A stretch of 64,000 nt of DNA, from the NCBI GenBank assembly GCA_963695855.1, contig CAVOHZ010000010.1, positions 480,001 through 544,000 of the forward strand, given 5' to 3'. Source of the DNA: an uncultured Nitrososphaerales archaeon (GTDB lineage: Archaea > Thermoproteota > Nitrososphaeria > Nitrososphaerales > Nitrososphaeraceae). Of the stretch, positions 40,501 to 42,909 are shown piece after piece. Each line of letters opens with the position of its first letter. Position 1 is the stretch's first letter. A model generated the notes under the pieces. That model did no database searches, was not told the DNA's origin, and saw only the letters and a program-made list of their open reading frames with translations. The position numbers and the translations under genes were made by a program.

Positions 40501-41758
40501 TTCCCCCTTTATCTACTACTCCAAATGATTCTGTTGTATCTTTTAATGCTACAAGTTCTCCTTTTTGGTCTTTTATTTTTATTTCTCCGCCTACGTTCTT
40601 AAAGTATCTTCCTGGATCATCAGTTATAGAAAATGTTATGAAGTTGCCTTGTTCGGTTGGTCCTCGATCGAGTGGAGACGCACCAGGTATACTTTTGGTA
40701 AAACTCCCAACAGGCCCTACCTTAAACGTACCCATCATTCCAGCTTCCATGTGAGCAAATACATGACAGTGATATTGCCAATTGCCAATTCCTACTTTGT
40801 CCCCTGCTTCAACTATAAAGGAGTGACTCTGATATGGAGAAATCAATTTTGTATCAATAATGTTTGCTGTTCCCGGATCCAACCATCTGTGAGCGTGTAG
40901 GTGGAAGGTATGTTGATGTAAGGCCCCTAACACATGGAACCGCACCAACTGATTCAAATCTGCTCCTAGTGTGGGATTTGTCCATAACGGTTTTTGATTA
41001 TGCTTTGAATCAATCTCTTGACCCCAGAAAGTAGAACCCACCATGAACAGAACATATTGTTTGTCGAGATCTTTTAGATCAACTGATACAATTTTGCCGT
41101 TTAATTGTGCTGGAACTTCATCATATGGATCAACAATTATAGCACCAAATAATCCTAAAGTTCTAAAATTCTCACCATAATATTCAAAAGTTCCAGGTGA
41201 TTTTGCTTTTATTTGCTGTATTTTTTGGGATCCGTCCTGATCTATCGAAGTGAGGATCAGCAAATCCCCTTCATGAATTTCTAATGTAGGACCAGGTATG
41301 GTAGGGAAATTAGGATATCTAGATGTTAAATCTGTCACTGAGTCTTCATCTCTGACTATATGCTTTTTCATAATGTAACCATATTGTCCGTTTGGTAGTT
41401 CCTTTGATTCGATAGTTACCTCATGAATTATGACATTTTCAGAATTAGATTCAATAGTATCTTGAAATGATTTATCTTGAAATGATTTTTTATCATCGTA
41501 GTATTTTATTTCAGAATCTTGGTTGGTGTTCTTGTAAGGAATATCGTATCTCATCTCGTTTTTCATCTTTTCTTCACTAGTGGCTTCAGCAATTTGTATT
41601 ATAGGATGTGTGCCACCAATTTTTATTTGACCCGTGTTTTCGTTTCCAACTATTTGGTCAAGTTTGTTTACATTATTTTGTGTCCCAATTGTTAATGTAG
41701 AGGACAGCAGTATCACTGCAAATAAAATCATGATGATATTATTTTTTAATTTGTTCAT
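37517..41758 (-). CDS. Large secreted copper protein: partial two-domain MCO, cupredoxin, His-rich beta-propeller and Gln/Pro tail
   Basis: PGPTLEI; HTFHLHAHRW and WQYHCHVFAHMEAGM; second T1-like site H...CKIHPYM; YVTN-like blades; ~330-aa Q-rich C-terminus. Confidence 0.88.
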   Translation of the reverse strand: MNKLKNNIIMILFAVILLSSTLTIGTQNNVNKLDQIVGNENTGQIKIGGTHPIIQIAEATSEEKMKNEMRYDIPYKNTNQDSEIKYYDDKKSFQDKSFQDTIESNSENVIIHEVTIESKELPNGQYGYIMKKHIVRDEDSVTDLTSRYPNFPTIPGPTLEIHEGDLLILTSIDQDGSQKIQQIKAKSPGTFEYYGENFRTLGLFGAIIVDPYDEVPAQLNGKIVSVDLKDLDKQYVLFMVGSTFWGQEIDSKHNQKPLWTNPTLGADLNQLVRFHVLGALHQHTFHLHAHRWLDPGTANIIDTKLISPYQSHSFIVEAGDKVGIGNWQYHCHVFAHMEAGMMGTFKVGPVGSFTKSIPGASPLDRGPTEQGNFITFSITDDPGRYFKNVGGEIKIKDQKGELVALKDTTESFGVVDKGGTVHFIMDDTNAVHTITSLLWPSEANNMPMQTISSHNEKVSSNQKVNQISLPPHMPFDQITAYSGGGIVKLETPGLYVFTCKIHPYMFAGVIADDPETIGFDLGDELELSTGDKVASSNDLSLALLRTFFIANNPFNWKDYSTNIPSDLKDSNVVNSEWIPKFPHIPVKTDQKEVFYLDEALMTSMKETATLGNTQEQITPLDTIQNPSIPGVGEVWIDTQFEETANKTKPGTATKVNVENWKVERKVSLPQINMNHPYNMWSDSNQQVMYQTQWFDNRLTAFDRDTGTLLDDIKVGDAPSHVMTNPTNDRLYVVLSGEQGVAELDFDKQNNKFNILRIIPMQDSGQLPTHPHGHWITPNGEKMITPNHFTDDVTIFDFTENQGKGEIQSRVDTGMMPIATGMMPDGKQVYVSNLLSSTLDLVDIESGKVIKTINLAESGNFWPIQTPVSPNGQYVVTANTLSGTIAVIDTDTDGNGVYDDPELVTSLPCDPGCHGVNFGAKNGVDTNTTSDDGYYAYVSSKFSNRMIAVDADPNNDGNVTDANIAGSVLLTGKYSSTGTPEFEADDQIVKFDGMGGQGVYAVPNVYPGWVEKLDSTFDNQLADLQRDPIGTFKDFHTLPISTLTNSSNDVVSPESLQSQYNDDREIMLKQQEIQKQQEQQQQEQQKDTKILDSGNATMQQKQGQPVQQQEQLKQQLKQQLQQLQQQLQQQLKQQLQQQEIQKQQEQQQQEQQKNTRILNSGNAIMQQKEGQPVQQQQQPQQQPQQQPQQQPQQQPQQQPQQQPQQQPQQQPQQQPQQQPQQQPQQQPQQQPQQQPQQQPQQQPQQQPQQQPQQQPQQQPQQQPQQQPQQQPQQQPQQQPQQQPQQQPQQQPQQQPQQQPQQQPQQQPQQQPQQQPQQQPQQQPQQQPQQQQQPQQQQQQQQQQQQQQPQQQPQQQPQQQPQQQPQQPQQPQQQQQLQQQESSSPAIIKSHSKIDSSLNILQPNNILGMIPIPYP
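37625..38242 (-). repeat. Coding micro/minisatellite (CAA)n with about 38 perfect CAACAACAACCA units (QQQP)
   Basis: Direct reading: TGGTTGTTGTTG units from 37781 to ~38236 on the + strand. Confidence 0.97.
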
Positions 41759-41760
41759 CG

Positions 41761-42909
41761 TTAATTTACACCTCCTTGCAATGGTGATTTTCCAGGAACA
41801 CTTTTTCCAACATTATCTACCTTAAACGATCCTTTCATTCCCGATAGAAGATGAGATGTTATAGTGTCCCTATATTCAGCAATACCATTTTTGGCCTCAA
41901 TAGTGAAAACATGGTTTTCGAGAGGTCCGAATTTTTTATCTTTGATTATCTGCGCTGTTCCAGGTTCAAGCCATTCATACCCTGTTAATGAAAAGATATG
42001 AAAATCAGTGCCCATTCCGTATAAATGGAATCTTATCAAGTCTCCATCTTTAGCACCGATAGTTGGATTTTCCCATAATGCTGTTCGAATGGCGTTATTC
42101 GTGTAATCTATTTCGTCACACCAAAAAGCATCATCGGTAACATAGCAGAATACATCCTTAGCAATATCGGCTACGTTCACCTTAGTTGGTATTCCGTCCA
42201 CCAAGGCCACAGTTTTTCCTGTATGGCTCTCTATTACAAGATTACCAAACAATCCTAAGGTTTCTGAACCATCAATATAAATTCCTGCAGAATTTAGACC
42301 AAGAGCATGATCATGATAAGGCCATGTACCAGATGTTCCGGGACCAGCGGTGTAATGATATTTTATTGATTCTCCGGGGCAAACACCTTCGTCTCTTAAG
42401 CCATTAAGAATTCCTAAAGTCCCATCACTTGCTATAGAGTAATGGATTCCATGGACGTGAATACTTACCCTACCTAGAGCACCTGTATTCTCTGGAGATG
42501 AATTAGTATTACATATTCCATTCATTGACTTACCAGGATTAGTTAAAGTTAATTCAACAGAATCACCTTCTTCAAACATTAAAGTTGGTCCAGGGATGGT
42601 GGGTCCTTTTGTATAATGATCTGTAATATCATTCAACAATATACCACCTATTGGATCGAAAATTTCATGTTTATCAAGCTGATAACCAAACAAATCATCA
42701 CCTGGTTTCTCAATTTTCTGCACAGACATCTCAATCTTGTGAAGAACAGGGTGAGGATAAACGGGATATCCGTCCTCATTATTTTGTGCTCCGACTGGTG
42801 GTATAGCCGAGCCAATATTGCCTAATCCTATTATTGAAACCATAATAGCAACCAACAATAAGGAATACGACCAATAATACCTCATATAAAAAATTTCAGA
42901 AATATGCAT
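41761..42909 (-). CDS. Secreted two-domain multicopper oxidase-like protein with intact domain 1 and degenerate domain 2
   Basis: PGPTLMFEEGD, SIHVHG and WPYHDH present; domain 2 reads FHIFSLTGYEW and EYRDTITSHLLSGM. Confidence 0.88.
   Translation of the reverse strand: MHISEIFYMRYYWSYSLLLVAIMVSIIGLGNIGSAIPPVGAQNNEDGYPVYPHPVLHKIEMSVQKIEKPGDDLFGYQLDKHEIFDPIGGILLNDITDHYTKGPTIPGPTLMFEEGDSVELTLTNPGKSMNGICNTNSSPENTGALGRVSIHVHGIHYSIASDGTLGILNGLRDEGVCPGESIKYHYTAGPGTSGTWPYHDHALGLNSAGIYIDGSETLGLFGNLVIESHTGKTVALVDGIPTKVNVADIAKDVFCYVTDDAFWCDEIDYTNNAIRTALWENPTIGAKDGDLIRFHLYGMGTDFHIFSLTGYEWLEPGTAQIIKDKKFGPLENHVFTIEAKNGIAEYRDTITSHLLSGMKGSFKVDNVGKSVPGKSPLQGGVN

Follow-up and report, generated by a model that had tools for sequence, protein, structure and literature searches.

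We analysed a stretch of 64,000 nucleotides (the window) from an uncultured Nitrososphaerales archaeon (assembly GCA_963695855.1, contig CAVOHZ010000010.1, forward-strand positions 480,001 to 544,000), in which two adjacent genes on the minus strand, A and B, encode paralogous proteins of the multicopper oxidase family (Table 1). The parts of B are, in order, a signal-like N-terminus, a linker, a two-domain oxidase module, a cupredoxin with a type 1 (T1) copper site, a seven-bladed propeller and a Gln/Pro-rich tail. The stop codon of A is separated from the start codon of B by 2 nt (CG), and a GGAGGT sequence lies within the 3' end of A, 11 nt ahead of the B ATG, a layout that suggests a single transcript with coupled translation. 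The true start of A is probably Met9 (codon at 42885), since the alignments of its relatives begin at residue 9. The hydrophobic N-termini of A and B are read as putative signal peptides; that of A could be a signal peptide or a membrane anchor.

We assigned the copper ligands by residue-by-residue alignment of A and B to solved Streptomyces small laccases (SLAC), which are the best PDB relatives of both proteins. A matched the small laccases over residues 102–377, i.e. over both domains, and Cu-oxidase_3 (residues 104–211) was the sole Pfam domain seen in it, while B contains Pfam Cu-oxidase_2 and a lactonase/YncE propeller. Domain 2 of B (residues 250–366) matched the small laccases strongly, with E values down to 5e-18. 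Domain 1 of B gave a weak match to the small laccases in the PDB (residues 152–169, ~5 bits); the two-domain assignment of B comes from its alignment to A, with which it shares 30% identity over 328 columns (E 3e-36), and not from a PDB match.

The two proteins retain different halves of the ligand set. A has both domain-1 HxH motifs (HVH and HDH) of the trinuclear copper cluster. In its domain 2, the FHIFSLTG segment retains the T1 ligand His304, and the two cluster histidines are replaced by Ser and Thr; in YRDTITSHLLSGM, which includes YRDTITSH at residue 346, HCH has become R-D-T and the T1 His and Met are retained. In total, A has lost the four domain-2 cluster histidines and the T1 Cys (now S, T, R, D, T). 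The T1 Cys column is occupied by Asp348, which is invariant in the A alignment and is Asp in 120 of 120 listed homologues. B lacks the segments of domain 1 that bear HVH and HDH, with gaps of 36, 12, 6 and 12 residues relative to A. The T1 site of domain 2, incomplete in A through the change of Cys to Asp, is complete in B (His283, Cys331, His336 and Met341). Thus, the eight cluster histidines needed per chain are found in neither A nor B singly: A has the two domain-1 motifs, B has the two domain-2 motifs, and the pair has all eight. Note that the old T1 site of A, with His304, His353 and Met358 kept and Asp348 in place of Cys, may be a candidate non-blue metal site, one confined to the versions from archaea and Nitrosomonas; Nitrosospira A-type proteins are without its His/Asp/His set (N, N, R).

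An earlier sequence-only reading of this DNA had described two reading frames 2 nt apart with shared paralogous sequence, A with the domain-1 ligands, B with a shortened domain 1 (EYYGEN where HDH would sit) and an intact domain 2 (HTFHLHAH and HCHVFAHMEAGM), neither complete alone and together supplying one full T1 plus type 2/type 3 (T2/T3) set. The open reading frames (ORFs) and the ligand alignments bear out each of these points. The same reading held that A had lost domain 2; the ligands are indeed gone, but the domain-2 fold is retained, and only the ligands have changed. The cupredoxin and propeller of B were absent from its account.

Table 1. Positions of the A/B gene pair and of the motifs and domains discussed in the text (window coordinates).
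Feature	Position	Strand	Description	Basis
Gene A	41761..42909	minus	382 aa, two-domain multicopper-oxidase paralogue with domain-1 cluster histidines only	ORF
Gene B	37517..41758	minus	1413 aa	ORF and domain searches
A-B junction	41756..41775	minus	GGAGGT 41775-41770, TAA 41763-41761, CG, ATG of B 41758-41756	
A hydrophobic N-terminal segment	42805..42885	minus	residues 9-35	read from translation
A His151-Val-His153	42451..42459	minus	first domain-1 HxH of trinuclear cluster	aligned to small-laccase HVH; invariant in A alignment
A His199-Asp-His201	42307..42315	minus	second domain-1 HxH	aligned to small-laccase HDH; invariant in A alignment
A FHIFSLTG	41980..42003	minus	residue 303; domain-2 position of HxxHxH	alignment
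A YRDTITSHLLSGM	41836..41874	minus	domain-2 position of HCHxxxHxxxxM	small-laccase alignment
B oxidase module	40649..41437	minus	~residues 108-370; domain 1 shortened, without HxH or HDH	alignments; pLDDT 88-89 in complex model
B EYYGEN	41168..41185	minus	residue 192; where domain-1 HDH would sit	alignment
B HTFHLHAH	40889..40912	minus	His283 (T1), His286/His288 (cluster)	small-laccase alignment; invariant in B alignment
B HCHVFAHMEAGM	40736..40771	minus	His330-Cys331-His332, His336, Met341	small-laccase alignment; invariant in B alignment
B cupredoxin	40214..40606	minus	~residues 385-515; T1-type ligands His432, Cys499, His502, Met505	conservation and AF2 model
B propeller	38729..39901	minus	~residues 620-1010; seven-bladed, YVTN/lactonase type	Pfam Lactonase and YNCE, AF2
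Tyr677 codon of B	39728-39730	minus	TAT	His in 59/60 aligned relatives
B tail repeats	37625..38556	minus	residues ~1075-1380; tandem repeats encoding (PQQQ)n / Gln-rich tail	period 12 and related, 51.3 copies, 97% matches

Conservation and history of the pair

A protein search with A returned 213 homologues, and in all 120 of those listed the four domain-1 histidines are present and the five domain-2 ligands are absent. We also scanned genomes with the A alignment, which gave 236 relatives; the best 80 loci were analysed, with oxidase modules classed by BLAST and then aligned. These loci come from Nitrososphaerales (45), from Nitrosomonas, Nitrosospira, Nitrosovibrio and allied bacteria (13), and from methanotroph lineages or proteobacterial metagenome-assembled genomes (MAGs) allied to these (22). 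Nitrososphaeraceae MAGs supplied the closest relatives, with 94% identity. All four domain-1 histidines were found in 57 of 58 A-type proteins, the exception (L018) being cut by a contig end, and none of the 58 had His or Cys at any of the five columns of the domain-2 cluster and T1 Cys. The B-type set consisted of 52 complete modules and three fragments. All eight domain-2 ligands were present in 51 of the complete modules, the exception (L032) again being cut by a contig end, and at most one His per module occupied the four domain-1 columns. Single oxidases with 12 of 12 ligands take the place of the A/B pair in all 22 loci of the methanotroph group. We saw no exception to this reciprocity in the 80 loci. 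Likewise, a profile-free library search gave 195 representatives, 31 of them of at least 280 aa, and 29 of these had exclusively the full, the A-type or the B-type pattern; the remaining two are cut short inside domain 2, and scattered or partial loss was not seen. A search for longer proteins revealed no single chain with A fused to B; fusions of a full-ligand oxidase with a cupredoxin and propeller came up instead.

In 55 of 58 loci, the A-type gene is followed directly downstream by a B-type gene in the same orientation, and the contigs of the other three end within 454 nt. For 54 of these 55 loci, the distance from the A-type gene to the nearest in-frame start of the B-type gene falls within -23 to +62 nt. 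Within the 80 loci, the cassette (the A/B pair or its unsplit form) is confined to ammonia- and methane-oxidising lineages or unnamed relatives. In the Protein Atlas, the matching entries had automatic names only ('copper oxidase'); one cluster has Nitrospirota as its commonest phylum, which we treat as a lead only.

We next built maximum-likelihood trees of the oxidase modules, using a quick method, with 71 and 59 rows; the trees are unrooted, and support is given as the SH-like approximate likelihood-ratio test (SH-aLRT). The A-type proteins formed a clan with support of 97 (71 rows) and 99 (59 rows), the B-type proteins a clan with support of 100 and 99, and the single oxidases a clan with support of 99 and 100, respectively. 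A fourth clan of fused full-ligand oxidases (P0241–P0248), included in the 59-row tree only, had support of 94. The order of the four clans was not resolved (support 68). Three sub-clades hold identical loci in the A and B halves of the 71-row tree (29 of 29 pairs): the clade of the window, a clade containing Nitrosocosmicus, and a clade of one Nitrososphaera MAG together with all bacteria. This identical membership indicates that the split happened once and that the pair was inherited as a unit; on these trees, the pair appears to have moved as a unit also when transferred between bacteria and archaea. That the complete form came first and the split form later is suggested by the consideration that ligands are more easily lost than gained.

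The sequence-only reading had proposed an origin by duplication and had predicted that reciprocal rather than random loss, with adjacency, would be found in other ammonia-oxidising archaea (AOA), and that histidines of both chains would converge in a multimer model. The separate clans with mirrored sub-clades, the patterns of the 58 A-type and 52 B-type sequences, the near-invariant gene order and the complex model described below all agree with this. Its scope proved too narrow, however: AOA do carry the pair, but so do ammonia-oxidising bacteria (AOB), and unsplit forms occur in methanotrophs.

Two A/B cassettes were present in each of eleven archaeal MAGs among the best 80 loci (L002/L027, L005/L028, L007/L032, L008/L021, L011/L030, L012/L026, L013/L037, L015/L038, L016/L034, L017/L042 and L033/L040). 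For the loci included in the tree, each A in these MAGs adjoins a B of its own sub-clade, which hints at specificity between the partners of a pair. Three copies were irregular. In L012 (9043–12599), the B-type gene is broken into two ORFs between oxidase and cupredoxin; in L044 (1031–1322), A and B are 290 nt apart; and in L080 (8758–11044; Methylocystis silviterrae), only a 200-aa remnant of the partner gene is left, beside an IS66 fragment. These may be assembly errors or real disruptions.

Modelled A+B interface, cupredoxin and propeller

We modelled an A+B dimer from residues 50–382 of A and 100–375 of B, each with its own alignment. The interface score (ipSAE) was 0.89 (0.88, 0.90 and 0.89 in individual runs), and the best of three controls scored 0.02. 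In calibration, 116 of 157 solved complexes and 2 of 215 mismatched pairs attained this mark, counts that hold roughly here because custom alignments were supplied. At least 94% of contacts were common to the runs, and the predicted local distance difference test score (pLDDT) of the partner was at least 88. Residues 151–217 of A lie against residues 282–344 of B, with contacts between A His151 and B His288 and between A His153 and B His286. The modelled interface is that of SLAC, with domain 1 of one chain facing domain 2 of the next. Since solved homologous homotrimers exist, the score shows likeness to them and is not proof that A binds B.

The four T1-type ligands of the B cupredoxin are present in 60 of 60 aligned relatives. 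Pfam assigned Cupredoxin_1 to 7 of 47 members and Copper-bind to 7 of 47, and a comparison of the B cupredoxin with PDB sequences gave no meaningful match. The AlphaFold2 (AF2) model is a beta-sandwich, mostly with pLDDT of 80–90 and with a low-confidence loop at model residues 71–95 (pLDDT <50). The propeller has sequence relatives in the PDB (1l0q and hydrazine synthase beta); its AF2 model had a pLDDT of 86 and a predicted template-modelling score (pTM) of 0.89, with pLDDT >90 over most blades, and Foldseek matched it to generic seven-bladed propellers.

Putative metal ligands lie in the propeller region at 38999–39733 (minus strand; residues 676–920), namely His677, His720, His771 and the Cys908, Cys912 and His913 of LPCDPGCHG. 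They are conserved in 59, 60, 57, 59, 58 and 59 of 60 aligned relatives, respectively, and are retained alike in the archaeal, AOB and methanotroph versions (loci L001–L079). The Cys-x3-Cys-His motif resembles a variant haem-c motif. Copper would seem likelier than haem at this site, because AOA are described in PMC11761707 as being without pathways for c-haem biosynthesis. The window's own B has Tyr at position 677, within the conserved NPHNMW motif, through a single-base change from CAT to TAT; the position is His in the 93%-identical L001 and L002. Tyr677 may be genuine variation or may stem from an error in sequencing.

Several known enzymes were considered and set aside. For the propeller, NosZ, hydrazine synthase and cd1 nitrite reductase were rejected, as family scores were below threshold and the propeller is generic by sequence and by fold; for L-NosZ, NF052460 scored 34.7 bits against a cut-off of 700, and no NosZ was among the Foldseek matches listed. 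A was likewise not identified as NirK (TIGR02376, 16.1 bits against a cut-off of 296.3).

The Gln-rich tail of B is encoded by tandem repeats. In the closest relatives, the stop-to-stop ORFs of B measure 1191 and 1143 aa, versus 1413 aa here, indicating that the tail varies in length or is collapsed in assemblies. Three plus-strand ORFs at 37605–38588, encoding poly-Cys, poly-Val and poly-Leu, are artefacts of the repeats.

A proposed heteromeric oxidase and its alternatives

We propose that A and B are probably the two subunits of an obligate heteromeric SLAC-type oxidase that is exported to the cell surface. This proposal is well supported by conservation, synteny, phylogeny and the structure model. 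Each chain contributes two cupredoxin domains, with the four domain-1 histidines coming from A, and the four domain-2 histidines and the only complete oxidase T1 site coming from B. The T2/T3 trinuclear cluster would form solely at the interface between A domain 1 and B domain 2, such that a three-chain ring (A2B or AB2) would hold one complete cluster, not three, wired to the T1 copper of B. A substrate would be oxidised at the conserved His/Cys site of the B propeller, with electrons passing from there to the cupredoxin T1 copper, then to the oxidase T1 copper and the cluster, where O2 would be reduced to water. The pair would go back to a single event, in which a complete oxidase gene, of the type that methanotrophs keep with a cupredoxin-propeller partner, was duplicated; reciprocal loss of ligands would have followed, and then inheritance as a unit and passage between bacteria and archaea.

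Several points weigh against this proposal. Binding, copper content and activity are at present computational expectations, and the complex score may reflect memory of the solved small-laccase homotrimers, i.e. likeness rather than binding. The ring requires a third chain, whose identity, like the fit of the shortened domain 1 of B, lies beyond what a model of the A+B dimer would capture. Adjacency was seen from the A side only, the scan having been anchored on A, so there may be B-type genes that lack an A-type neighbour, and the locus counts come from the best 80 of 236 relatives. We infer the direction from complete to split on unrooted trees in which the clan order has a support of 68. Finally, Tyr677 could impair the propeller module in this particular genome.

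It is unlikely, in our view, that A and B work separately, with B as an electron-transfer protein that passes electrons from its two T1 coppers and propeller site to another acceptor, A as a copper-binding or scaffold protein or a pseudo-enzyme, and no trinuclear cluster formed. Neither chain alone can build the cluster, as separate function would have it, and the His/Asp/His/Met set at the old T1 position of A, with Asp in 120 of 120 listed homologues in sets dominated by AOA, could bind metal. However, the His/Asp/His set is lost in the Nitrosospira A-type proteins and therefore cannot be the shared function. Separate function also offers no reason for the exact retention, in two domains of life, of the domain-1 histidines in 57 of 58 A-type proteins and of the domain-2 cluster histidines in 51 of 52 B-type modules. 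Moreover, the two genes are adjacent wherever contigs extend far enough, their clades are mirrored, and the complex model brings the two sets of histidines together.

We consider it quite improbable that A and B form a heteromer with an interface site other than an O2-reducing trinuclear cluster, for example a NirK-like mononuclear copper acting on nitrite, NO or another small molecule. The T1 copper is in domain 2, as in SLAC-type oxidases, and all eight histidines of the four HxH motifs, together with the Cys-His bridges, are kept across the two chains as in small laccases, whereas a T2 site of the NirK type needs three histidines. A did give a weak NCBIfam match to copper nitrite reductase (E 0.0055), but its 16 bits are far under the cut-off of 296. 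The hosts do handle nitrogen oxides, and on a Methylocystis rosea plasmid the cassette has an NnrS gene 4 kb away. Decay of one or both genes into degenerating duplicates without a joint function can hardly be credited. Ligands are missing from both proteins, and in the B of the window Tyr replaces a propeller His that is otherwise conserved, but the ratio of nonsynonymous to synonymous substitution rates, computed against three relatives, is 0.10–0.24 for A, for the oxidase part of B and for its cupredoxin-propeller part, indicating that neither gene is decaying. In addition, the window has unbroken reading frames for both genes, identical losses have become fixed in 58 archaeal and bacterial loci, and the probable Nitrosocosmicus franklandus counterparts take ranks 5 and 9 for transcript abundance in biofilm (PMC12448741 supplement).

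For the heteromeric oxidase, the leading guesses at a substrate are a by-product of the hosts' copper monooxygenases (hydroxylamine or NO) or Cu(I), since only ammonia and methane oxidisers were seen here to carry the cassette. It is conceivable, though doubtful, that A/B is the O2-reducing end of a previously unrecognised three-module copper oxidase common to organisms that have copper membrane monooxygenases (soil AOA, AOB and methanotrophs), whose propeller metal site (three His plus Cys-x3-Cys-His) would be new, would oxidise a reactive by-product of ammonia or methane oxidation, for example hydroxylamine or NO, and would pass electrons via two T1 coppers to a single asymmetric cluster to which both genes contribute. 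In that case, the pair would represent a surviving evolutionary step from homotrimeric two-domain oxidases towards those with six domains, such as ceruloplasmin. More generally, a heteromeric SLAC-type oxidase with one complete cluster per ring, set within a three-module copper cassette of ammonia and methane oxidisers, would be a new variant on a known enzyme. It would be a clean case of duplication and reciprocal loss making two genes mutually dependent, and would show a possible route from a symmetric three-cluster ring to the one-cluster ring of six-domain oxidases. It would also mean that either gene, annotated or expressed alone as a "multicopper oxidase", is misleading. The cassette is of physiological interest because of the lineages that carry it, because it is sometimes borne on plasmids, and because its probable counterparts are highly transcribed in biofilm; according to PMC12448741, it is not universal in AOA.

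Related oxidases and surroundings of the pair

The SLAC-type oxidases of Streptomyces (homotrimers; PDB 3cg8, 3t9w and 4m3h, among others) have in common with the A/B pair a chain of two cupredoxin domains, four HxH motifs and the HCH...H...M motif. It is established, and restated in PMC11761707, that their cluster is formed where domain 1 of a chain meets domain 2 of its neighbour. In SLAC, each chain has 12 ligands and the trimer three identical clusters, whereas in A/B the ligands are divided between two paralogous chains, so that at most one complete cluster would be expected per ring; moreover, B is fused to a cupredoxin and a propeller. The solved two-domain multicopper oxidases that we found are all assemblies of one gene product. 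We found no description of a heteromeric or split-ligand two-domain oxidase in the literature searched; Kerou et al. 2016, who defined the multicopper oxidase (MCO) types MCO1-4, may comment on the missing ligands.

Six-domain oxidases such as ceruloplasmin and MnxG are single polypeptides with one trinuclear cluster per ring of six cupredoxin domains, and with other patterns of ligands among the domains. The predicted A/B ring would likewise have one cluster per six domains, but would be made of two gene products rather than one polypeptide. MnxG was a weak PDB match of B (E 0.0013).

A precedent for the electron path proposed for B, from cupredoxin to oxidase, is Nmar_1354 of Nitrosopumilus maritimus (MCO4 lineage; PDB 9CCK), a two-domain oxidase with a pendant T1 cupredoxin whose copper is 13.5 A from the oxidase T1 copper, and which converts hydroxylamine to nitroxyl (PMC11761707). 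Unlike B, Nmar_1354 is described there with the full ligand set in one chain and without a propeller or partner gene; B has no domain-1 ligands and an added propeller. Its 'heterotrimer', the only one to emerge from the literature searched, is a proteolytic variant of a single gene product. 9CCK was absent from the best 60 of 123 PDB matches of B residues 1–416.

Genes resembling the pair have been noted in the AOA Nitrosocosmicus franklandus, where 'two copies' of MCO3, NFRAN_2029 and NFRAN_2030, are among the genes most induced in biofilm (PMC12448741). In the supplement, their log2 fold changes in biofilm are 3.16 and 3.17, their levels 14073 and 9353 transcripts per million, and their ranks 5 and 9; the genes are adjacent, both are annotated with a multicopper oxidase domain, and NFRAN_2029 has a beta-propeller arCOG. 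NFRAN_2029 is probably the B-type and NFRAN_2030 the A-type counterpart, a match made by annotation and not by accession. A 945-aa N. franklandus homologue of B (P0176) was among the matches listed, with 44% identity. The passages of PMC12448741 at hand treat the two genes as copies of one oxidase type with a possible role in cell-surface modification, and within those passages complementary loss or a heteromer goes unmentioned. They also give MCO3 as absent from N. viennensis and N. maritimus, indicating that it is not the missing core hydroxylamine oxidase.

The unsplit cassette of the methanotroph group (L045–L080) has the same order of modules as A/B, with a single 12-ligand oxidase and, just downstream, a separate cupredoxin-propeller protein of ~610–640 aa. 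With 12 ligands in one oxidase, a homotrimer would suffice. One-chain fusions of a full-ligand oxidase, cupredoxin and propeller (P0241–P0248) have 12 ligands in 8 of 8 cases; this architecture, of 969–1112 aa, was also seen in P0254, P0259 and P0261. The unsplit oxidases are 38–42% identical to A and to the oxidase part of B, and the conserved cupredoxin and propeller residues are identical.

The unsplit cassette was found on plasmids of Methylocaldum (L055) and Methylocystis rosea (L081, NZ_CP044330.1, 39607–42454). In M. rosea, an ECF sigma factor gene and a small ORF precede it, the NnrS gene is ~4 kb downstream, and RefSeq names the cupredoxin-propeller partner 'hypothetical protein'; in Methylocaldum, it has an Rrf2 regulator upstream. 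For Methylocystis SC2, multicopper oxidases encoded on plasmids, possibly the same genes, have been reported to rise under high ammonium (PMC9600857).

In the window (G+C ~0.27–0.39), the pair is flanked by purE/purK, an alcohol dehydrogenase, a metallophosphoesterase, an NHL propeller and a Cupin_5 protein, and Pfam searches of 13 window ORFs revealed no link between these and the pair. Those searches, together with searches of 113 ORFs around 11 bacterial loci, showed no conserved neighbour beyond an upstream regulator of varying family, and the A/B cassette is a self-contained two-gene unit. No second copy of the cassette was found in the window. The copper-limitation promoter motif of N. 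viennensis (PMC7785015) had five matches in the window at three mismatches, versus 3.0 expected, none of them upstream of A. Between A and a divergent Cupin_5 gene is an intergenic region of 284 nt that contains a near-palindromic stretch, TCCAAATTGGA, within AAATTCCTCCAAATTGGAGATTTGGAATTTT (43040–43075, minus strand), which may be a candidate regulator site. At 44257–45618 (minus strand) is a gene for a 453-aa protein for which no Pfam family was found. Its N-terminus is hydrophobic, it contains an internal direct repeat (QNIIPGFNSNPETIIGQNNLPNPNLPSVK, present twice) and stretches rich in Asn, Ser and Thr, and it is probably secreted or located at the cell surface.

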